Assembly: GCA_964407215.1 (NCBI GenBank)
Contig: CAYOUT010000006.1
Coordinates: 87,437-151,436, forward strand
Direction of reading: 5' to 3'
Length of the DNA: 64,000 bases
DNA from: an uncultured Anaerolineales bacterium
Lineage (GTDB): Bacteria; Chloroflexota; Anaerolineae; UBA1429
The position numbers were made by a program, and so were the translations under genes. The first letter of the stretch is position 1. Every line of letters starts with the position of its first letter. Of the stretch, positions 17,848 through 55,829 are shown one piece after another. The notes under the pieces were generated by a model, which made no database searches, was not told the DNA's origin, and saw nothing but the letters and a program-made list of their open reading frames with translations.

Positions 17848-18150
17848 GTAGGGACGCAGGGCCGCGCGTGGCGGTGTGTGTAGGGGCGCAGGGCCGCGCG
17901 TGGCGGTGTGTGTAGGGGCGCACAGCTGTGCGCCCCTACATTCCCACATCGTATCCCCACATCGTGCGCTCCTACATTCCCACATCGTATCCCCACATCG
18001 TGCGCCCCTACATTCCCGCATCGTATCCCCGCATCGCATGCGCCTTGTACATTGCAGCGCAGAGACGCGCCGCCGGGGTTGTGTGCGCGGGGCGCAGGGC
18101 CGCGTGTGGCGGTGTGTGTAGGGGCGCACAGCTGTGCGCCCCTACACGGG
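17848..18150. repeat. REP/BIME-like palindrome array, 5' of the RAYT
   Basis: Two ~32-nt direct repeats (GTAGGG[AG]CGCAGGGCCGCGCGTGGCGGTGTGT), then the full palindrome, then three 36-nt tandem units (TTCCCACATCGTATCCCCACATCGTGCGC[TC]CCTACA), then a second palindrome copy. Confidence 0.7.
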
Positions 18151-18204
18151 TGGATTTACATGGTGCGCTCTTACATGGTGGCTACGCAAAGGCGATATCA
18201 GGCA

Positions 18205-18738
18205 ATGCCCTACGATCCGGACCGGCACCACAGACGCACGTTGCGCCTACAACAGCTCTATAGCCAAACGAACACTTTTTTTGTCACCCTGACGACACAT
18301 GAACGCGTTTGTCTTTTCGGCGAGGTGGTCGGCGGGGCGATAGTGCTGTCGGCGTTCGGAAAGATCGTCGAAGAGGAGTGGCTGAAAACGCCCGAGATCC
18401 GCCCCCAGGCCGTTCTCGACGCGTATGTCATCATGCCGAACCATGCGCACCTCCTCGTGAGACTTTCGGTTCACGCGGATGCGACAGGCGCCGTAGCGGT
18501 CGTCGGCCGCGATGACAGGCCCCTGGTGCGCCCAGCGAGATCGCTGGGCTCTCTCATCGCAGGGTTCAAGGCGGCTTGTACCACGCGCATTAACACGATG
18601 CGCGATACAGCCGGAGCGCGGGTGTGGCAGAGGAACTACTATGAGCGTATCGTACGCAACGAGAGAGAGTTGAACGCTCTCCGATGCTATATCCGGGAGA
18701 ACCCATCCAACTGGGCGGCGGATCCTGACAACGTATGA
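18205..18738 (+). CDS. REP-associated tyrosine transposase (RAYT; IS200-like Y1 HUH transposase)
   Basis: MPYDPDRHHRRTLRL…FFVTLTT…IMPNHAHLLV (HuH motif)…WQRNYYERIV (catalytic Tyr region). In-frame alternative ATGs lie at 18160 and 18175. GC content is visibly lower than the neighbouring genes. Confidence 0.8.
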   Translation: MPYDPDRHHRRTLRLQQLYSQTNTFFVTLTTHERVCLFGEVVGGAIVLSAFGKIVEEEWLKTPEIRPQAVLDAYVIMPNHAHLLVRLSVHADATGAVAVVGRDDRPLVRPARSLGSLIAGFKAACTTRINTMRDTAGARVWQRNYYERIVRNERELNALRCYIRENPSNWAADPDNV

Positions 18739-18788
18739 CGGCACGGCGCCGCCGGGGTTGCGCGCGGGGATGCGACGTGATGATATAT

Positions 18789-19130
18789 GTAGGCATATGT
18801 AGGGGCGCGGAGACGCGGCGTGATGGTGTGTGGTGATATGTGTAGGGGCATATGTAGGGGCGCACAGCTGTGCGCCCCTACATTCCCGCATCACGTGCGC
18901 CCACATCACGCGCTCCCATCGCGTGCGCCTTGTATATTGCAGTGTATCAAAGCGCAGGGGCACACCGTGATGGTGCCGGGACATGTGCAGGGGCGCGGAG
19001 ATGCGACGTGATGGTGTGTGGTGATATGTGTGAGCGCACAGCTGTGCGCCCCTACACCCGCATCGCTACATTCCCGCCCCTACATTTTCGTATCGTGCGC
19101 TCCTACACCGCGTGCATTTATATGGCACCC
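18789..19130. repeat. REP/BIME-like palindrome array, 3' of the RAYT
   Basis: GTAGG half-sites, the full palindrome at ~18854-18881, a module (TGCGCCTTGTATATTGCAG…) similar to one in the 5' array, and a degenerate palindrome at ~19034-19055. Confidence 0.65.
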
Positions 19131-38386: not shown

Positions 38387-40057
38387 CTAGACTTCGGGCT
38401 GGCAATCCCACTGGGTGAGGTCCCAGTTGCCGTCCTCACTGTACTGGATGGCGTCCTCGCGTATGTCCTCGGGCGCCGCGTCGTGGGTGACGGCGGTCAT
38501 GTTGGCCATGGTCTGTTCCAGCGTCTGCTCGCCTATGAAGTACAGGTCGTTCTCGCGGTAGAGGAAGTCGCGGTACTTGCCCCCCATGCCGAACAGCCAG
38601 GTGATAGGGGGTATCGGCAGGCCGCCGCCGGGCAGGCGCGACTCGCCCACGAACAGATTGGCGATCTCGGGCAGGGCGCGCGCCTTCTTGACGGACGGGA
38701 TGAACGAAGGCACCTCGTTGACGACGAGCTCGTCGTGTTCGGGCGTGGTGAGGAACATGAGCCAGTCCACGCACTCGTCCACGTTGCCGCGCTGGAGGCA
38801 CATGCGGTTCAGGCCGAAAGCGATGGAGCCGTAGCCGCCGACGCCGACGGGCAGCAGCGGGGGATCCTTGGCGAACTCGGAGGTCTCTTGGGTGACGGGA
38901 GGCAGCCAGAACGACGAGAACTCAAAGTCGCGCCGGTCGTCGTCGCGCAGCGGGCCGTACTGCCAGGTGCCCTCCCACAGCATGGCCACTTGACCGGTGG
39001 CGAACGCCTGGTAGGCGGCGGCGCCGTCTCTCAGCGTCCAGTCCGTCGGGAAGTACTGCGCCCACTCCTTCTGGATGCGGTACATATCCTGGACCTCGGG
39101 CTGCTCGAACAGGAACCAGTCGTAGCACCAATACTGGTGGGCCGTCTCCTCCAGGCTGACATAGCCCTCCTGCTTCCACAGGGGCACCGTCTCGTGGTAG
39201 TTGAGCGTGTCCATAAAGTCGAGCCAGTTCCAGCAGAGCTCGTTCCCCAGGACGCGCCAGATCCAGTCGTGGCCCGTGCTGCTGGGGCTAAAGGGCACGA
39301 CGCCCGCGTCCTGCAGCATCTGGTGCCACTCCATGAAGGTGACCCAATCGGGGGGTGAACCCAGCTCGGGGTCGATGCCCGCCTCCAGGTCGATGCCCGC
39401 TTTCTCAAAGAGGTCTACGTTGACATAGACGCCGGTAGAAACCAGGTCCATCGGCACGCCGCCATAGTTCCCCTTGGAGCTAAAGCTCTCGATGAAGGGA
39501 TCGAGAAAGTGCTCCTTCCAAGGGGCGGGATCGTCCGGGATGTACTTGTTGGGCATCTCCAGGTAGTCGTTGAGGGGTACGCACTTGCCCTCATCGACGA
39601 AATCGTGCAGGCTGCTCAGCCACAGCCAGAAGACGTCCGGCCCCGTGCCGCCGATGAGCTGCGTCTGCAGCCAATCCACATAGTCGCCGGTGGGGGCGCC
39701 GATGAACTTCATGGTGACGCCGGGGTGGAGATCGTTCCACTCCTCCGCCAGGTCGTCCAGCGCGCGGCGCTTGGGGGCGTTGGGGTCGGGGTTGGTGTCG
39801 GCGGAGAGGGGCGTGTAAACCTGAGCATAGTGCTCGATGACGCCCTGGAAGCCCACGGGCTTGGCCTCCTCGGTCGGCTCCTCGACGGGCTCTGTCGGTT
39901 CGGCCTCTGCCTCGGGCGGCGCCTCACCCTCGGTCTCTGTCGGGGCCGTTGGGGCGGGGGGCTGGGCCGGTTGGCAGGCCGCTGCGATAGTGGCTAACGC
40001 TGCAACGCCGGAGAAACGCAAAAAGTCACGTCGCTTGAGTCGCAAGTCGTCTCGCAT
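38387..40057 (-). CDS. extracellular solute-binding protein (family 1, sugar ABC transporter) with Tat/lipoprotein signal
   Basis: MRDDLRLKRRDFLRFSGVAALATIAAAC (twin-arginine motif plus lipobox), Glu/Pro-rich linker, then an SBP family 1 fold. AAGGAG SD. No adjacent permease genes (orphan SBP). Confidence 0.85.
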   Translation of the reverse strand: MRDDLRLKRRDFLRFSGVAALATIAAACQPAQPPAPTAPTETEGEAPPEAEAEPTEPVEEPTEEAKPVGFQGVIEHYAQVYTPLSADTNPDPNAPKRRALDDLAEEWNDLHPGVTMKFIGAPTGDYVDWLQTQLIGGTGPDVFWLWLSSLHDFVDEGKCVPLNDYLEMPNKYIPDDPAPWKEHFLDPFIESFSSKGNYGGVPMDLVSTGVYVNVDLFEKAGIDLEAGIDPELGSPPDWVTFMEWHQMLQDAGVVPFSPSSTGHDWIWRVLGNELCWNWLDFMDTLNYHETVPLWKQEGYVSLEETAHQYWCYDWFLFEQPEVQDMYRIQKEWAQYFPTDWTLRDGAAAYQAFATGQVAMLWEGTWQYGPLRDDDRRDFEFSSFWLPPVTQETSEFAKDPPLLPVGVGGYGSIAFGLNRMCLQRGNVDECVDWLMFLTTPEHDELVVNEVPSFIPSVKKARALPEIANLFVGESRLPGGGLPIPPITWLFGMGGKYRDFLYRENDLYFIGEQTLEQTMANMTAVTHDAAPEDIREDAIQYSEDGNWDLTQWDCQPEV

Positions 40058-40218
40058 GTTCGATCTCCTTGTACAGAGTGGGGACGATTGCGCGCCCTAC
40101 CGCGAACGACCTCCTTTCACAGTGCGCCGGAACATATGGGGCGCAAGCAACGGTCCGGTGTGAGCAGCGCGGGCCTGCGAGCGGGCAGCCACAGTGCGGT
40201 GCAAAGCCCGAACGTACA

Positions 40219-40251
40219 AAGCAGGCGCACAAAAGCTCGTCGTGCGCCTGC
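40219..40251 (-). terminator. stem-loop (11-bp perfect stem AGCAGGCGCAC…GTGCGCCTGCT), candidate terminator of the MBL/MOSC operon
   Basis: Lies 230 nt downstream of the MBL gene stop on the minus strand. The U tract is weak. Confidence 0.3.
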
Positions 40252-40479
40252 TCTCATAGTTCGTAGCTCCTCTCTGATGCCAACCAAGAATCAGACAGTG
40301 CTCATACGGGACGCAGACTAGTTCGTGGTCCCATTATAGCGAATGGGTTATGGGGTGTCAAGGGATCGTGCTCGCGCGGCGCCGTTGCCCTTTGGCTGGG
40401 CAGGGGCGTTTGCGAGGGTTGGGTGCCCTACGCATATGGCGGTGCGTGTGCGGGCCCGCGGCCCGCAGCGGGCGCTCTC

Positions 40480-48896: not shown

Positions 48897-50369
48897 CTAG
48901 GGCGCGCCCTCGGGTGTGCCGAGGGGTGCCTGTAGGCTGATGCGTGTGCCGAGGCCGGGCGCGGAGGCGATGGCCATCCGCCCGCCCACCATCTCCAGCC
49001 GCTCGCGAATGCTGAGGAGGCCGTAGCCGCTAGAGGGCGACACGTCGCTCAGGCCGTCGGTGGGGGCGAACCCCCGGCCGTCGTCGGCCACCTCGATCTC
49101 CAGCCATCCGCTGGCGGGGCGCCGCAACAGTACGCGGGCATGTTGGGTGTCGGCGTGTTTGACGACGTTGAACAACAGCTCGCGCACCGCCTGAAAGAGC
49201 AGCACGCGCACCCCCTCCGCCGCGGGCGGCGCCTCGTCATCCGCCTGCAGCTCGACGGTGAGCCCGTGGTTATCGTGCATCCAGCTGGCCAGCCAGCGCA
49301 GCGCGGGCCCCAGGCCCAGGTCGTAGAGTACGGGCGGACTGATATCCATAGAGAGCGAGCGGCAGGCTTGGATAGACTGATCCAGCAGCTCGTCGGCGAG
49401 GCGCAGCGTCTCCTGCATCGTGCTGGCTTGCGCCTGCCTGGCCGCCGCCGCCAGCCGCAGCCTGATGGCCGCCAACAGCTGCTGCAGGTCGTCGTGGAGC
49501 ATCTGCGCCAGCCGACGGCGCTCGCGCTGCTCGGCCACCGAGAGCTCGAACACCAGGCCGCGCAGCTGCTCGGTGCGCCGCTCCAGCTCTCGGTGGGTGC
49601 GCTGGAGCGCCTCCTCCGCGCGTTTGCGCTGGGTAACGTCGCGTGCGGCGGCGAAAACGCCCTGCAGCTCGCCGGCCTCGTTGCGGTAGACGCTGGCGTT
49701 ATAGAGCACGTCTATGGTGCGCCCCGAGGTGTGGCGGATCGTCAGCGGGTAGTCTCGCACCTCGCCCTCGGAGAGGACGCGCCGATAGCCCTCGCGCGCC
49801 CTCTCCGGCTCGGTAAAGCTGGCGCCGAAATCGCTGCCGATGAGCTGCTCGCGGGGCAGGCCGGTGGCATCCTCGGTGGCGCGGTTGACGTCGGTGATGA
49901 CGCCGGCGGGGCTGATGGCCACCAACGGGTCGGGGCTGGCCTCGAGCAGGCTGCGGGCGTAGCGCGAGGCGCGCGCCATCTCCACCTCGTGGCGTTTGCG
50001 TTCGATGGCGTAGCGCAGCGTACGCACAAGCAGCGTGCCGTGCGCCTCCCCTTTGAGGAGGTAATCTTGGGCCCCGCTCTCCATGGCGCGCAGCGCGATG
50101 GCCTCGTCGTGCAGGCCGCTCAACAGCACCACGGGCAGGTCGGGTGCGTGGGCGTGCACGCGCAGGAACGTCTCCAGCCCCTGGCTGTCGGGCAGGCCCA
50201 GGTCGAGCAGCATCACCGCCGGCTCGATCTCGGCCAGGCGCTGTAGGCCATCCTGCAGGGTGGTGGCCAGCTCCAGCTGAAACGGCGCGCCCGCATCGCG
50301 GAGCAGCTCGTGCGTCAGCCGCGAGTCGCCCGGGTTGTCCTCAACGAGAAGAACGATCTCCTTGATCAT
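48897..50369 (-). CDS. hybrid sensor kinase: N-terminal REC domain + PAS + HisKA_3 (NarL-type H-box) + HATPase_c
   Basis: [15 protein letters not shown]…LLDLGLPD… (receiver with conserved Asp), PAS region, H-box …[13 protein letters not shown]… (HisKA_3), HATPase (…EVADDGRGF…[12 protein letters not shown]…). GGGAGGGG SD. Confidence 0.85.
49645..49963. repeat. ~319-bp segment, apparently nucleotide-identical to 51579..51897 (PAS-domain coding region shared between two kinase genes)
   Basis: Encodes …[108 protein letters not shown]… in both genes. Flanks diverge immediately outside. Confidence 0.8.
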
Positions 50370-50829
50370 CGGGACCCCTCCCGTTGGGTGGCAAAACCAC
50401 GACCGTGAACCAAAACTCTTGGATAGACTTGACGACGCTCAGGAACTCTTCGAGGCCCACCGGCTTGGTGATGTAGCAGTTGGCGTGCAAACCGTAGCTT
50501 CGCAGGACGTCCTCCTCGTCGCGCGACGTCGTCAGAATGACCACGGGGATGCGTCGCAGGTCGGGGTCCTCTTTGATCTCCGCCAAGACCTCGCGCCCGT
50601 CCTTGCGGGGCAGGTTCAGGTCTAACAGGACGAGATCGGGGCGCACGGTGTTGGTGTAATGGCCTTGGCGGCGCAGATACGCCAGCGCCTCCACGCCGTC
50701 GCCCACGATGTTGAGGCGATTGAGCACGCGCCCCTCTTTGAGCGCCTCCTGCGTGAGGCGCACGTCGCCCGCGTTGTCCTCTACCAACAGGATCTCGATG
50801 GGGCGGCCTACCGATAGGTTACCGGCCAT
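50341..50829 (-). CDS. single-domain response regulator (CheY-like receiver)
   Basis: …[13 protein letters not shown]…[13 protein letters not shown]…PVVILTTS…. No output domain. Overlaps both flanking kinase genes (29 nt and 11 nt). Confidence 0.85.
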
Positions 50830-52834
50830 GATGTGTACGTTTCCTTTCGGGGATGGAAAAGTAGAATGTGGATCCGCTGCCGGGTGTGGATTCGACCCAA
50901 ATGCGTCCTCCGTGGCGCTCTACGATCCGCTTGCACACGGGCAAGCCGATGCCGCTGCCCGCGTAGCGATCGCGGCTGTGCAGCCGCTGAAAGAATAAAA
51001 AGATGCGATCGCTGTATTCGGGCGAGATGCCGATGCCGTTGTCTTGGACGGCGAACACCCACTCGCCGCGCTTGCGCTGCGCCGAGATCGCAACGCGCGG
51101 GGGGGCGTCGCCGCGGAATTTGATGGCGTTACTCACCAGGTTCTGCAGCAGCTGTTCCATCTGCGTGGCATCGGCCGAGATGGCGGGCAGTGGGCGGTGA
51201 GTGACGATGGCGTCGTGCTCGTGGATGGCCAGCTGCAGGTTTGCGAGCACCTGCGCCAGTATACGGTTCATATCCACCGGTTCAAAGTCGGCGCCCCGGG
51301 TGTTGACGCGCGAGTACACCAGCAGGTCGTTGATCATGTGCTGCATGCGGTTGGCGCCATCCACGGCAAAGCCGATGAACTCGTTGGCCGCCTCGTCCAG
51401 CTGGTCTGCATAGCGCTGCTGCAGCAGCTGGGTAAAGCTCGCCACCATGCGCAGGGGTTCCTGCAGGTCGTGCGAGGCCACGTAGGCGAACTGCTGCAGG
51501 TCGGCGTTGGAGCGCTCCAGCTCGGCGGCCTGGCGTTGCAGCGCCTCCTCGGCGCGCTTGCGCGCGGTGATGTCTCGCGCGGCGGCGAAAACGCCCTGCA
51601 GCTCGCCGGCCTCGTTGCGGTAGACGCTGGCGTTATAGAGCACGTCTATGGTGCGCCCCGAGGTGTGGCGGATCGTCAGCGGGTAGTCTCGCACCTCGCC
51701 CTCGGAGAGGACGCGCCGATAGCCCTCGCGCGCCCTCTCCGGCTCGGTAAAGCTGGCGCCGAAATCGCTGCCGATGAGCTGCTCGCGGGGCAGGCCGGTG
51801 GCATCCTCGGTGGCGCGGTTGACGTCGGTGATGACGCCGGCGGGGCTGATGGCCACCAACGGGTCGGGGCTGGCCTCGAGCAGGCTGCGGGCGTAGCTCG
51901 AGGCGGCGCGCAACTCGGCGGTGCGCTCGCGCACGCGCTCGTCCAGCTCGTCGTTGGCCCGGCGGAGCGCCTCCTCGGCGTGCCTGCGCTCGGTGATGTC
52001 TATCCCCATGCCGATGAGGTACGGGGCACCGTCGATCTCGATCCGCAACCCGCTGAAATCGTAGGGGATTTTGCGGCCGTCTTTGGTGATGATCTCCGCC
52101 TCGATGCGAGCCTCGCCCTGTGAGAACACTTGGCGGATCCGCTCCTCCAGCAGGCGCCGGTCCTCACCCTCGAAATAATCCAGCGGGCTCCTCCGGACCA
52201 CCTCTTCGGAGGTGTACCCGGTGACGCGCTCCCAGTTCCTGTTCCAGCGGATAAAGCGCCCCTGCTCGTTGTAGAGGTAAAAGATGCCCGGCAGGCTCTC
52301 CAGCGTTCGCTCGGAGAGGGTGGCCAGCTGGTGCAACTCGGCGGTGCGCTCGGCCACGCGGCGCTCCAGCGACTCGTTAGCCTCTTTGAGGGCGCTCTCG
52401 GCGCGCACGCGCTCGGTGATATCCAGGCCCACCTCGAGTATCTGTTGCGCCCCATTCGCCCCCTGAAAGGGGTAATCGTAGATGTCGTAGATGCGGCGGT
52501 CGGGGCCCGTCCACACCCAGTGGTGGGGGGCGCCGGTTTGCAGGGAGTGGTAGGTCTCGCAATCCTCGCAGGGGGCGCCGCGCTCGAACAGATATTCGTA
52601 ACAGGGGCGGCCGTCGGCCTCACCGAAGCGCTCTGTGAAGAAGCGGTTGGTAAAGGTGACGCGGTAATCCGCGGATAGCAGGATAATGTACACCGGCAGT
52701 GTGTCGAGCAGGTGGTAGAGCTGCTCGCGCCCCAGGATCGCGCCGTGCATCGGCGCTGTCTCGAGCTCGGCCACGCGGCGTCGCAGGGCGGTCAGCTCCT
52801 CGCGCAACCGCGCTATCTCTGCGTCACGATCCAT
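50819..52834 (-). CDS. multi-PAS sensor histidine kinase (HisKA + HATPase_c), cytoplasmic
   Basis: N-terminal coiled coil, at least three PAS/PAC units, H-box …[14 protein letters not shown]…, HATPase …[11 protein letters not shown]…[13 protein letters not shown]…. AGGAGG SD. Confidence 0.85.
51579..51897. repeat. second copy of the ~319-bp PAS-coding segment (see 49645..49963)
   Basis: Apparently identical nucleotide sequence in the same orientation. Confidence 0.8.
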
Positions 52835-52948: not shown

Positions 52949-53548
52949 TCAGTAATAGATGTTGTCCATCACCACCCGGCCGTTGGGGTGGAAGCGCACG
53001 CCCTCCAGTTCGAGCAGCGCGCGCTTTAACGGCAAGCCCCCGCCAAAGCCGCTCAGGGCGCCGTCGGAGCGCACCGTGCGGTGGCACGGGATCACCAGCG
53101 GGAACGGGTTGGTCGCAAGGGCGCGCCCCACCGCTCGCGGGCCCCTGGGCACGCCCAGGTGCTGCGCGATGCGGCCATAAGTGCTCACCATGCCGCGCGG
53201 GATGGCGTACTCGGCCAGCAGCACACGGCGCTGAAAGGGCCTCATCACCGCGCCGGGGGGCGCATCGTCCAACGCCAACAGGTCCAGCGGCAATGTTACG
53301 TCGTCGCCGCGCAGGCTGCGCTCCAAGCGATCGCCCAGATCGTCCACCTCGGGGCACGACGCCGCATGGCAACCGGGGCAGGCCCGCTGGGCCAGCGCCG
53401 CCGCGGACACCTCGGGGCCGACGGGCAGCAGGATGCGCACGACGCGGGGTTCGTTGCAGCCGTCAACGCCGGCCGCCGCGCGCCAGATCAGCGCCACGTC
53501 GCCAAAGGGGGAGGGGACGCCCACAAAGCTCAGGGGTGTGGGATCCAT
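52949..53548 (-). CDS. ogt: methylated-DNA--protein-cysteine methyltransferase (Ogt/MGMT family)
   Basis: Start MDPTPLSFVGVPSPFGDVALIW with an AAAGGAAG SD. Active-site …VIPCHRTV… (PCHR motif) and the HTH of the DNA-binding domain. Confidence 0.8.
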   Translation of the reverse strand: MDPTPLSFVGVPSPFGDVALIWRAAAGVDGCNEPRVVRILLPVGPEVSAAALAQRACPGCHAASCPEVDDLGDRLERSLRGDDVTLPLDLLALDDAPPGAVMRPFQRRVLLAEYAIPRGMVSTYGRIAQHLGVPRGPRAVGRALATNPFPLVIPCHRTVRSDGALSGFGGGLPLKRALLELEGVRFHPNGRVVMDNIYY

Positions 53549-53688
53549 GCGCGTTCTTCCTTTCAGGACAAGGCCAAGCCATACCATATGATAGCCCGCT
53601 CGCGCGCGAATCACAAACCCCGCTTGCCACGGTGTGCCGAGCTGTCTTGTGAATATGTCGTGCATGTGAAATTCATCGCAAAAAAGGG

Positions 53689-53717
53689 TTGACATCCCAG
53701 TACAGATGTGGTAATAT
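53689..53717 (+). promoter_or_regulatory. consensus sigma70 promoter (TTGACA-N17-TAATAT) with A-tract UP-like element
   Basis: aaaaagggTTGACAtcccagtacagatgtggTAATATcatagttg. TSS predicted at ~53722-53725. Confidence 0.6.
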
Positions 53718-53722
53718 CATAG

Positions 53723-54074
53723 TTGCAGAGCCTCGAGAGATTAGAGTCACTTTAACTACCTTAGGGCAGGCGAACGATCAGCGGCGACCATGACGCGAGT
53801 TGTGGCGGCACCGTAAGCTGGACGAAAGGGAACCCGTCAAACAGGCTCCCGAGGATGCCAGCGAGCGAGTACACCGAGAGATCGGAGGAAAGCGAGTCGG
53901 AAGCGAGCCCAGCATGGGTGTTGGGCCAGTAGCACAGCTCGAGACCCAGGTGGGGGGTAGTTGAAGCGGATGAAGGTCACTTGAGGCTCTGCGTTTTCGA
54001 GGTTCTGCGAGTTGTAGGGTTCCGTGTGGGAAGCCGTGCCGGGTGAGTGTTTGCCCGGCACGGCTTCGTTTTGC
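53723..54074 (+). ncRNA. candidate ~350-nt non-coding RNA of unknown family (promoter to intrinsic terminator, no ORF)
   Basis: Bounded by the consensus promoter and a 14-bp GC-rich terminator. No plus-strand ORF of 60 aa or more, and stop codons are frequent in all three frames. Lower GC than flanks at the 5' end. Not recognisable by eye as RNase P, tmRNA, SRP or 6S. Confidence 0.45.
54030..54074 (+). terminator. rho-independent terminator (14-bp perfect stem GAAGCCGUGCCGGG…CCCGGCACGGCUUC + GUUUUG)
   Basis: gaagccgtgccggg-tgagtgtttg-cccggcacggcttc gttttg. Confidence 0.65.
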
Positions 54075-54095
54075 CCCCCAGAGGGTGCGGCGTCG

Positions 54096-55829
54096 TTAGC
54101 GCTCCACCGCCAGCGCGCGCACCCGCAACGTGTGGCCCGCCGCGCCGCCGTGTTGCCGCACGCGCAGCTCGGCGCCATCGGCCAGCGCGCTCGCCGCGTA
54201 GAATGCGCCCACCCAAGAGATGCCGGCCCAGATGGGCACGTCCGGCAGGATGCGGAGCGGCGCTATGGGGCGCCCCCCAACCGTGAGCTCGATGTGCACC
54301 TGCTCGCGCGAGGCGGGCTCCGTAGGGCGCTGGCCCTCGCGTGTCGTCTCTTGGCCGAACCGCACCGGCAGGCCGCCGCCACCCACACCCGAGGAGTCGG
54401 TTGCGCTGTGAGCCTGCGCAAACACAACCACCTCGTCAGCCTGGGGAGGGGCACCGCGCCACACACCGGTGAGCTCGCCGGGCCCGGTGGGGGCGAAAGC
54501 GATATCCAGCGGCCGCATGCATCGCGGTACGGGGCAATCGGCGGCGGGCGTTAGCGCGAGGTCGGCGCTGGCGTAGGCGCCCAGCCCGATGACGGCCATC
54601 TGCTCGGGCGCAAGCTCCACCAGCAGCGCGCCCTCGCCAGCGATCTGTACGGCGGCATCGGGCCCCGCGTCGGCGTACAAGGCCGTCGCTCGGGCGAGGC
54701 CGGGCAGCGCCAGCTCGATCTGCTGGGAGGTTCGCGAGCCGTTCACCAAGGAGAGCAGGCCACGCGCCGCACCGCCCGTGAGGCAGCCGTGCCAGGGCGC
54801 TACGCCGGGCTCTCCCCCCAACCAAGCGGTGCTCAGCCCCCGGCCAAAGGCGTCGAAATAGAGGCGCCGCGCCGCCGCCATAAAAGCCACGTCGCCGTCC
54901 GCCAGCAGGGTGGGGTCGCCGTAGTAGAGATCGCGCCGGCCGCCGCGCGCCAGATGGGCCAGGTAGGTGCGCCGGAAGCCGTGGGCGCCCTGGTAAAAGC
55001 TGGTGTTGGTGCCGCCCACCATGCAGCCGTGGTCATCTATGCGCTCCATGGGGAAGCCCAGCCGGCTCAGAAGCCACACTTGGTGATCTTGGAAGGCGTC
55101 GATGGAGCGGCGCAGGTCGGTGCGCGGCAGGTCGCTGGGGCGCGGATCGCCCGAGTAGACGTAATCGAACACCTCGAGCCACGAGAGATCAAAGCCGGGG
55201 TGCGTGGGCGAGCCCATGGGGCGCGACAGGTAGCCCGGCCAGCGTTCGATGCCGTTGTAGGCGATGATCACCAGGTCGGGGTATTCGGCGCGCAGGCGCG
55301 AGAGGATGCTGCGCAGGGCGGCGCCGTTGGCCTGCCCGGCCTCTTCGGGCGTGGCCCAGCCGCAGCCGGGCGGCCGCGCAGAGAGGTTGGCGAAATCGAG
55401 CTTGAAGAGGCGCACGCCCCACGTTTCCAGCGCGTGGCGCCAGCCGGCCTCGAGAGAGGGGCCGTAGGGGCCGTAGGCCAGGCTGTGGGCCCGCCGCTCC
55501 GGGTCGTAGCTGGGGGCCCATTCGGCCACCTGCAAATGGCTGCCGGAGAGGTCGAACCAGAGCCCCGGCAGCATCCCCAGCTCGCGGATGCGCGCCAAGG
55601 CCGGCGCAAAGCCCCGCGGCCAGTGGGGGCGTTTAAAGGCGGTGTACGGCTGGCCCGGGTCGAACCAGAAGGCGTCCAGCAAATAGTAATCGAACCCCAC
55701 GCCGTGGCGCGCCCGCCAGCCCGCCAGGGTGTCGAGGGCGGTCATCGTCATGGCCTCGTCGAGCTCGACGCGGTCTCCCAGTTCGTCGTGAAAGGCCCAA
55801 TCGCAGTAGATGGAGAAGGGACGTTGCAT
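54096..55829 (-). CDS. putative clan GH-D (GH36/GH27-like) glycoside hydrolase
   Basis: Start MQRPFSIYCDWAFHD with an AGGAG SD. …FDYYLLDAFWFD… (compare the DDGWF motif) and …VRLFKLDFANL… (compare the nucleophile K.D motif of alpha-galactosidases). Track ORF extends to 56006 with R/W/A-rich junk. Confidence 0.5.
   Translation of the reverse strand: MQRPFSIYCDWAFHDELGDRVELDEAMTMTALDTLAGWRARHGVGFDYYLLDAFWFDPGQPYTAFKRPHWPRGFAPALARIRELGMLPGLWFDLSGSHLQVAEWAPSYDPERRAHSLAYGPYGPSLEAGWRHALETWGVRLFKLDFANLSARPPGCGWATPEEAGQANGAALRSILSRLRAEYPDLVIIAYNGIERWPGYLSRPMGSPTHPGFDLSWLEVFDYVYSGDPRPSDLPRTDLRRSIDAFQDHQVWLLSRLGFPMERIDDHGCMVGGTNTSFYQGAHGFRRTYLAHLARGGRRDLYYGDPTLLADGDVAFMAAARRLYFDAFGRGLSTAWLGGEPGVAPWHGCLTGGAARGLLSLVNGSRTSQQIELALPGLARATALYADAGPDAAVQIAGEGALLVELAPEQMAVIGLGAYASADLALTPAADCPVPRCMRPLDIAFAPTGPGELTGVWRGAPPQADEVVVFAQAHSATDSSGVGGGGLPVRFGQETTREGQRPTEPASREQVHIELTVGGRPIAPLRILPDVPIWAGISWVGAFYAASALADGAELRVRQHGGAAGHTLRVRALAVER

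Follow-up and report, generated by a model that had tools for sequence, protein, structure and literature searches.

The 6S RNAs are rod-like molecules of 150–200 nt with a large central bubble, Ms1 is about 300 nt long, and the primary sequence of both is poorly conserved between lineages. Classical trans-acting sRNAs usually comprise 50–250 nt, have an accessible seed, and in many cases occur in a single species or genus only, while the sites recognized by CsrA are GGA motifs in hairpin loops. The raiA motif, OLE, ROOL, and GOLLD RNAs are not explained by base-pairing regulation. Classes of the raiA type are defined by occurring widely across the phylogeny, by dozens of nucleotides that do not vary, and by strong covariation, and raiA is rare or absent in Anaerolineae (PMC10861870).

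Here, we compare with these RNAs a candidate RNA gene located next to ogt in a 64-kb stretch of Anaerolineales DNA (the whole stretch analyzed, hereinafter the window). Like raiA, OLE, ROOL, and GOLLD, the candidate would be a stand-alone gene (single-copy in the window) of a few hundred nucleotides with a multi-branched predicted fold, GNRA tetraloops, and E-loop-like purine-rich loops; unlike them, it is without detectable relatives, and none of their Rfam models gives a match. Similarly to 6S (RF00013) and mycobacterial Ms1, it stands alone behind a strong housekeeping-type promoter, lacks an ORF, and has its ends paired in a long irregular helix, its length being close to that of Ms1, whereas its interior is branched, with a three-way junction followed by a junction with three hairpins, and contains no central bubble. 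With the classical trans-acting sRNAs it shares an orphan intergenic position, its own promoter, a Rho-independent terminator, and a narrow range, but its 268 nt are almost wholly paired, the longest loop being 10 nt. Finally, like CsrB/RsmZ, it is about 350 nt long and carries a repeated short motif (GCGAG six times, with about one copy expected, and GGA eight times); unlike in CsrB/RsmZ, the repeats lie on the 3′ side of internal loops that are symmetric, no Rfam model is matched, and csrA is not seen in the window. The candidate is most likely real, lineage-restricted, and placed in no known family.

The locus is organized as follows.

52949–53548, minus strand: ogt gene (PF01035)
53549–54095: intergenic gap of 547 bp, bounded by two minus-strand genes
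53680–53685, plus strand: A6 tract, UP-element-like, just 5′ of the −35 hexamer, as read in the sequence
53689–53717, plus strand: predicted sigma-70-type promoter, TTGACA (53689–53694), 17-nt spacer, TAATAT (53712–53717)
54030–54072, plus strand: intrinsic-terminator-like hairpin, 17 bp with a 4-nt loop, followed by UUUU
54096–55829, minus strand: convergent gene encoding a 577-aa protein with no Pfam domain

The mechanically delimited ogt ORF (52949–53695, minus strand) encodes 248 aa and is longer than its homologues; as the latter have 185–206 aa and the exact database entry has 199 aa, the start of ogt is ATG 53548 and not 53695. This start leaves a divergent promoter region of 176 bp, and a weaker promoter-like site lies within it on the minus strand, at 53616–53588. 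The gene orientations confirm that, as the preliminary description had it, the candidate unit is situated between the divergent ogt and a convergent gene; the downstream gene being convergent, the unit is not a leader or a 5′ UTR. In turn, the label “GH gene” given there to the convergent gene is not established; no Pfam domain is found in its product. Relatives of this protein, 40–58% identical, occur in MAGs labelled Chloroflexi, Anaerolineae, Verrucomicrobia, Ca. Brocadiia, and Stellaceae; the name “alpha-amylase family” is used for it in one source.

In the surrounding ~20 kb (43790–63989), all 16 predicted genes are on the minus strand, and the RNA candidate is the sole plus-strand unit; its predicted transcription would thus run head-on to all its neighbors in this region. 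The 44 window ORFs scanned with Pfam include sugar-metabolism enzymes, two-component systems, and transporters; among them, there is no gene for a partner protein of the kinds looked for, namely, Hfq, CsrA, Ro (TROVE), a reverse transcriptase (RT), or Cas.

The promoter matches the consensus at 10 out of 12 positions and has a TGn extended −10 element, and together with the A6 tract it bears out the near-perfect sigma-70 promoter reported earlier. Sites with at least 10 matches out of 12 number 14 in the 64-kb window, both strands considered, and TGn is present only at this one. The promoter lies within the most AT-rich island of the window (53641–53770), and both its hexamers are the same in the two haplotypes described below, the spacer differing at one base. 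Counting from the −10 hexamer, transcription is predicted to start at G53725, and it is with this base that the helix closing the predicted RNA structure begins. Judging by the quality of the promoter, expression may be strong and discrete, as had been suggested.

One more promoter in the window deserves mention: a perfect sigma-70 promoter, TTGACA-17-TATAAT (12 out of 12), is found at 40333–40361 on the minus strand, about 270 nt upstream of a gene for a sugar-binding protein (38387–40057, SBP_bac_1). The respective long leader (40058–40330) has no match in Rfam; about 46 codons in it, with GAGAGGAG in front, may constitute an ORF.

The terminator-like hairpin is located ~345 nt downstream of the promoter. 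Of its 17 bp (54030–54046/54051–54067), 14 form a perfect GC-rich core, and the stem is followed by G-UUUU-G. The terminator scan yielded no sites, as this hairpin, with its 4 U, falls short of the rule of at least five T in eight. Thus, of the “textbook” terminator claimed previously, the GC-rich hairpin is indeed present, but the wording is somewhat overstated, given that the tract has only four U. The convergent gene has its stop codon 22 nt from the end of the terminator.

To characterize the RNA itself, we folded the full transcript (53722–54074) and its core (53725–53992, 268 nt). The minimum free energy (MFE) is −163.7 kcal/mol for the full transcript (z = −5.98, none of 100 shuffles being as stable) and −122 kcal/mol for the core (z = −6.39, none of 200 shuffles). 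The centroid structure of the core is the same as the MFE structure, most pairs having a probability of at least 0.9. The predicted elements, all on the plus strand, are as follows.

53725–53992, plus strand: structured core; G53725 pairs with C53992
53725–53762, plus strand: closing helix, 5′ strand; 33 bp, irregular, AU-rich
53764–53782, plus strand: helix P2, 5′ strand; GGGC-AG-GC-GAA-CGAU-CA-GC
53783–53809, plus strand: hairpin with a GCGA (GNRA) tetraloop
53810–53870, plus strand: long hairpin B, with a 6 × 7 internal loop ACGAAA/GAGGAUG and a 2 × 2 loop AA/GA
53874–53885, plus strand: hairpin CCGA-GAGA-UCGG with a GNRA tetraloop, flanked by AGUA (5′) and GGAAA (3′)
53892–53910, plus strand: helix P2, 3′ strand; GC-GA-GUCG-GAA-GC-GA-GCCC, containing two of the six GCGAG repeats
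53912–53951, plus strand: hairpin P3, with the 10-nt loop CAGUAGCACA at 53927–53936
53954–53992, plus strand: closing helix, 3′ strand; pairs with 53725–53762
53993–54029, plus strand: G/U-rich, weakly structured linker of 37 nt between the core and the terminator

The closing helix consists of segments of 13, 4, 3, and 13 bp and includes seven G–U pairs. Inside it, a three-way junction leads to hairpin P3 and helix P2, and the latter leads to the second junction, from which three hairpins emerge, two of them capped by GNRA tetraloops (GCGA and GAGA). Nearly all internal loops of the core are symmetric and purine-rich (A/A, AGA/GAA, AG/GA, GAA/GAA, CA/GA, AA/GA); in P2, these are the 2 × 2 loop AG/GA, the 3 × 3 loop GAA/GAA, and the 2 × 2 loop CA/GA. 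The 3′ strand of these loops is repeatedly GA or GAA, and it is this recurrence that gives the transcript six plus-strand copies of GCGAG, compared with ~1.1 expected from the window frequency, an excess that was noticed post hoc. Judged by eye, the GAGA hairpin could be extended by a loop-E/S-turn-like element made up of the flanking AGUA and GGAAA.

Single-stranded sequence is scarce. The core contains only six unpaired runs of at least 4 nt, all of them purine-rich, and the P3 loop is its sole long single-stranded loop. A search for loop–loop pseudoknots within the RNA revealed only weak G–U-rich 5–6-mers. The linker at 53993–54029 may serve for processing or for pairing.

These observations bear directly on whether the RNA could be a base-pairing regulator, acting either in trans, via the loop of P3 (10 nt) or the G/U-rich linker on the 3′ side, or in cis, by convergent transcription or by read-through that covers the 3′ end of the glycoside-hydrolase-like operon in antisense. 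The unit does have the traits typical of sRNAs, namely, its own promoter, an intrinsic terminator, and restriction to one species; 37 weakly structured nucleotides are available immediately 5′ of the terminator, and, given the short U tract and the 22 nt that separate the terminator from the convergent stop codon, read-through would yield an antisense RNA. However, an almost fully paired core of 268 nt goes far beyond the needs of a seed-bearing sRNA; a crude duplex scan against 41 start regions of the window produced nothing above the shuffled controls (shuffled RNAs even scored better), and if the terminator is not read through, the transcript does not overlap the neighboring genes. We therefore consider regulation by base pairing unlikely, if still worth weighing. 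Since almost all nucleotides of the core belong to a helix, a GNRA tetraloop, or a symmetric purine-rich loop, action by shape is favored over extensive pairing with mRNA.

We next consider how exceptional the fold is, which strand it prefers, and how it varies. When 268-nt segments were sampled over the whole window on both strands (322 segments, with z-scores that are rough, being based on 12 shuffles per segment), the z-score of the core was the most negative of all. The only region of comparable structure is a cluster of REP-like palindromes at 17.9–19.1 kb. This second most structured region of the window (17850–19110) harbors a gene for an IS200-like Y1 transposase, probably of the RAYT type (ORF 17908–18738, with a weak match to PF01797 in its C-terminal part, under Pfam’s own cut-off), on either side of which lie clusters of the perfect 26-nt palindromic REP-like repeat GGGGCGCACAGCTGTGCGCCCCTACA (four sites, with none expected).

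For the reverse complement of the core, the centroid is much weaker and the MFE is −98.7 kcal/mol (z = −4.19), and the pairs of the core include 14 G–U as opposed to three A·C oppositions, that is, G–U pairs on the opposite strand. The excess of G–U pairs together with the weaker fold of the minus strand points to selection at the RNA level on the plus strand and not to a DNA palindrome, and the strand preferred by the fold is the one that carries the promoter and terminator. The GC content of the core is 59%, compared with 67.5% for the window; a GC content lower than that of the genome is usual for RNA genes in high-GC genomes. According to blastn and the covariance model (CM) search, the unit is single-copy in the window, and it is unrelated to the REP sequence; within the window, it thus shows neither the multiple copies nor the absence of strand bias that characterize REP/BIME or MITE-like repeats. 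In these searches, two minus-strand segments, 49824–49890 and 51758–51824, located in sensor-kinase genes (48897–50369 and 50819–52834, respectively), had equal chance-level blastn and CM scores, which suggests a repeated segment common to two paralogous PAS kinases.

Variation within the species was assessed using strain variants sought via 90% protein clusters, which yielded one further haplotype. The species is found in metagenomes from anaerobic digesters (ENA PRJEB19949, Danish plants, described in PMC5481317; GCA_002049705.1; Logan SRR8925752), and the two haplotypes, ~99% identical, both retain the RNA unit. The transcript contains five differences between them, three in stems and two in the terminator loop (54047–48). 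Two of the stem changes, C53806U and C53992U, convert G–C to G–U, the latter preserving the pair of G53725, and the third one, in the terminator stem, converts A–U to G–U. Hence, in the comparison of two haplotypes, 114 out of 117 predicted pairs are invariant, three have one-sided changes to G–U, and none has a compensatory change; three wobble-compatible substitutions would occur by chance in about one case out of eight. The density of substitutions is 0.75% in the core, 1.7–2.4% in other non-coding regions, and 0.5–1.5% in genes, numbers too small for significance.

The search for relatives outside the species was negative in all collections considered. The nearest relatives of both flanking proteins are 56–58% identical and belong to Chloroflexi/Anaerolineae MAGs. 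The loci of these relatives are not syntenic. In four loci of relatives containing homologues of the flanking proteins, no equivalent intergenic region was observed; in one relative, the gap upstream of ogt is occupied by a gene for a 99-aa lipoprotein-like protein, and the fold there is no better than shuffles (z = −0.06). Nor did nhmmer and a covariance model of the 150-nt center find anything in 244 kb of the relatives’ loci. The scan of JGI metagenomes with GGAGGAAAGCGAGNNNNGAAGCGAG retrieved only two unrelated purine-rich sequences, while a pattern made of both strands of helix P2 in the R/Y code, sought in the GTDB representative genomes, had seven matches, approximately the chance number estimated beforehand and none homologous (one of them is, by eye, a helicase-type coding sequence, probably mfd). 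In viral contigs from IMG/VR, two patterns produced zero and seven chance matches, respectively, the latter without stem complementarity, and blastn against plasmids and phages gave no match. The scans of collections require an exact match to a guessed core and thus have low sensitivity for a diverged RNA; therefore, the missing homologues are weak evidence of absence. An exact pattern from the window also missed the source organism among 185,579 GTDB species representatives, so that the source species is apparently absent from these representatives and known from metagenome assemblies only.

The same data allow us to weigh the possibility that the unit is not functional, being a decaying remnant (for example, a structured-RNA gene now dead, or what is left of a mobile or foreign element whose ends are inverted) or a DNA palindrome beside a promoter-like AT patch. 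Its presence in one species only, with no homologues in the collections searched, would fit this explanation, as would its ends, which form a long inverted repeat, the REP-type palindromes elsewhere in the genome, and a deficit of substitutions that is not significant. However, a mere palindrome agrees poorly with the prevalence of G–U pairs over A·C oppositions and with the much weaker fold of the minus strand; moreover, promoter start and helix start are in register with each other and with the terminator, the sequence has a single copy in the window and no relation to the REP repeat, and no transposase or integrase is adjacent. On balance, a non-functional origin seems rather unlikely.

At the gathering thresholds, Rfam 15 has no match in the whole window; in the region 53600–54150, at E ≤ 10 with permissive filters, there are only three spurious minus-strand matches on the terminator hairpin (CRISPR-DR29, hairpin ribozyme, and L2 leader), rejected as driven by the terminator and lying on the wrong strand. 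ARAGORN detected no tRNA and no tmRNA in the window. Thus, the Rfam check proposed in the preliminary description has been carried out and matched no known family, and the impression, obtained there by eye, that the unit does not resemble RNase P, tmRNA, SRP, or 6S RNA is upheld by Rfam and, for tmRNA, also by ARAGORN.

Individual families compare with the unit as follows. RNase P RNA, SRP RNA, and tmRNA have no Rfam match, and ARAGORN found no tmRNA. The covariance models of the raiA motif, OLE, ROOL, GOLLD, HEARO, and other large Rfam classes are unmatched. A retron or DRT-type ncRNA is rejected, as no RT domain is present in the 44 scanned ORFs of the window; a bacterial Y RNA (YrlA), as there is neither an Rfam match nor a TROVE domain among the scanned window proteins; and guide-RNA families, as no membership is detectable and no Cas is encoded by the scanned window ORFs. 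As to CsrB/RsmZ, only two to three of the eight GGA are unpaired and none lies in a hairpin loop. Several local likenesses seen only by eye, that is, of GAGGAAAG to RNase P CR-I, of CCUUAG/AUGG to the 11-nt tetraloop receptor, and of the 6 × 7 loop to a K-turn, were dropped, having no model match.

A further possibility is a regulator of the 6S/Ms1 type, an abundant RNA with paired ends that binds RNA polymerase, either mimicking promoter DNA or binding the core enzyme; such an RNA could evolve too fast in sequence for its homologues to be detected. The stand-alone gene with a strong sigma-70 promoter, both ends forming a long irregular closing helix, and the size near that of Ms1 agree with this possibility, and homologues missed by sequence are typical of the class. 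Nevertheless, no Rfam family, including RF00013 and related 6S models, is matched even at E ≤ 10 with permissive filters; the core, at 268 nt, is well over the 150–200 nt of 6S; and its confidently predicted fold is branched and not rod-like, the large central bubble being absent and the largest internal loop (6 × 7) lying in a side hairpin. Hence, a 6S/Ms1-type function appears improbable.

With regard to coding potential, the longest plus-strand ORFs within the unit have 54 aa (from TTG, 53800–53964), 34 aa, and 25 aa, and there is also one of 8 aa; none of them has a Shine–Dalgarno (SD) sequence at a proper distance. This is consistent with the earlier statement that no plus-strand frame reaches 60 codons and that SDs are lacking, and the overlapping antisense ORFs, described there as junk-like, are frame artefacts of a genome with 67% GC. 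A search with the translation of the 54-aa ORF, aimed at catching mis-annotated homologues, had no matches at E ≤ 0.001 among 1.84 billion representative proteins. Accordingly, that the unit encodes a small protein of at most 54 aa, its RNA structure being incidental, is highly improbable: besides these four ORFs, this explanation can invoke GGAGGA at 53886–53891, but the latter has no start codon at the SD distance, the closest downstream AUG being 24 nt away, the 54-aa product has no match, and the ORF starts are buried in stable predicted helices.

Summing up, the designation of the unit in the preliminary description as a candidate novel structured ncRNA stands with regard to its promoter, hairpin, and fold and to its having neither an ORF nor an Rfam family, whereas in the collections searched no homologue outside the species, and between the haplotypes no compensatory change, has been found to support it. 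We regard it as probable, on the signals read from the sequence, that the unit is an independently transcribed gene of a structured ncRNA. The joint statement that it is such a gene and that its non-coding RNA acts through shape is somewhat favored.

As for the particulars, our inferences on transcription and its exact ends, on processing, and on how the RNA acts are as follows. Transcription would start at about G53725 from the extended −10 sigma-70-type promoter and stop at the 54030–54072 hairpin, producing a primary transcript of ~345 nt. The 5′ end of the transcript would pair with 53954–53992, thus closing the core of 268 nt, and the 3′ linker and the terminator may be trimmed off, leaving a mature RNA of ~270 nt. 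This RNA would work by its shape, as a stable protein-binding scaffold, as a sequestering RNA, or as a self-contained tertiary fold. Such action is suggested as most likely by the scarcity of single-stranded sequence and by the purine-rich loops and GCGAG repeats, which were noticed post hoc.

More tentatively, and with a rather low probability, the candidate could be the first member of a new class of medium-to-large RNAs with a complex tertiary fold (either catalytic or scaffolds of an RNP) that are similar in nature to raiA or OLE and confined to a poorly sampled lineage of digester Chloroflexota. That this lineage has almost no sequenced relatives would explain why such a class has been missed by comparative pipelines.

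At present, the unit is a candidate from a single species and a well-delimited target, and not yet a discovery. If transcribed, it would be a stand-alone bacterial RNA of ~270 nt, unusually rigid and multi-branched, with no counterpart in Rfam. Non-coding RNAs are almost unstudied in Chloroflexota, members of which are abundant in wastewater digesters. Few large structured RNAs of unassigned function are on record, and any addition to them may hold new RNA biochemistry.
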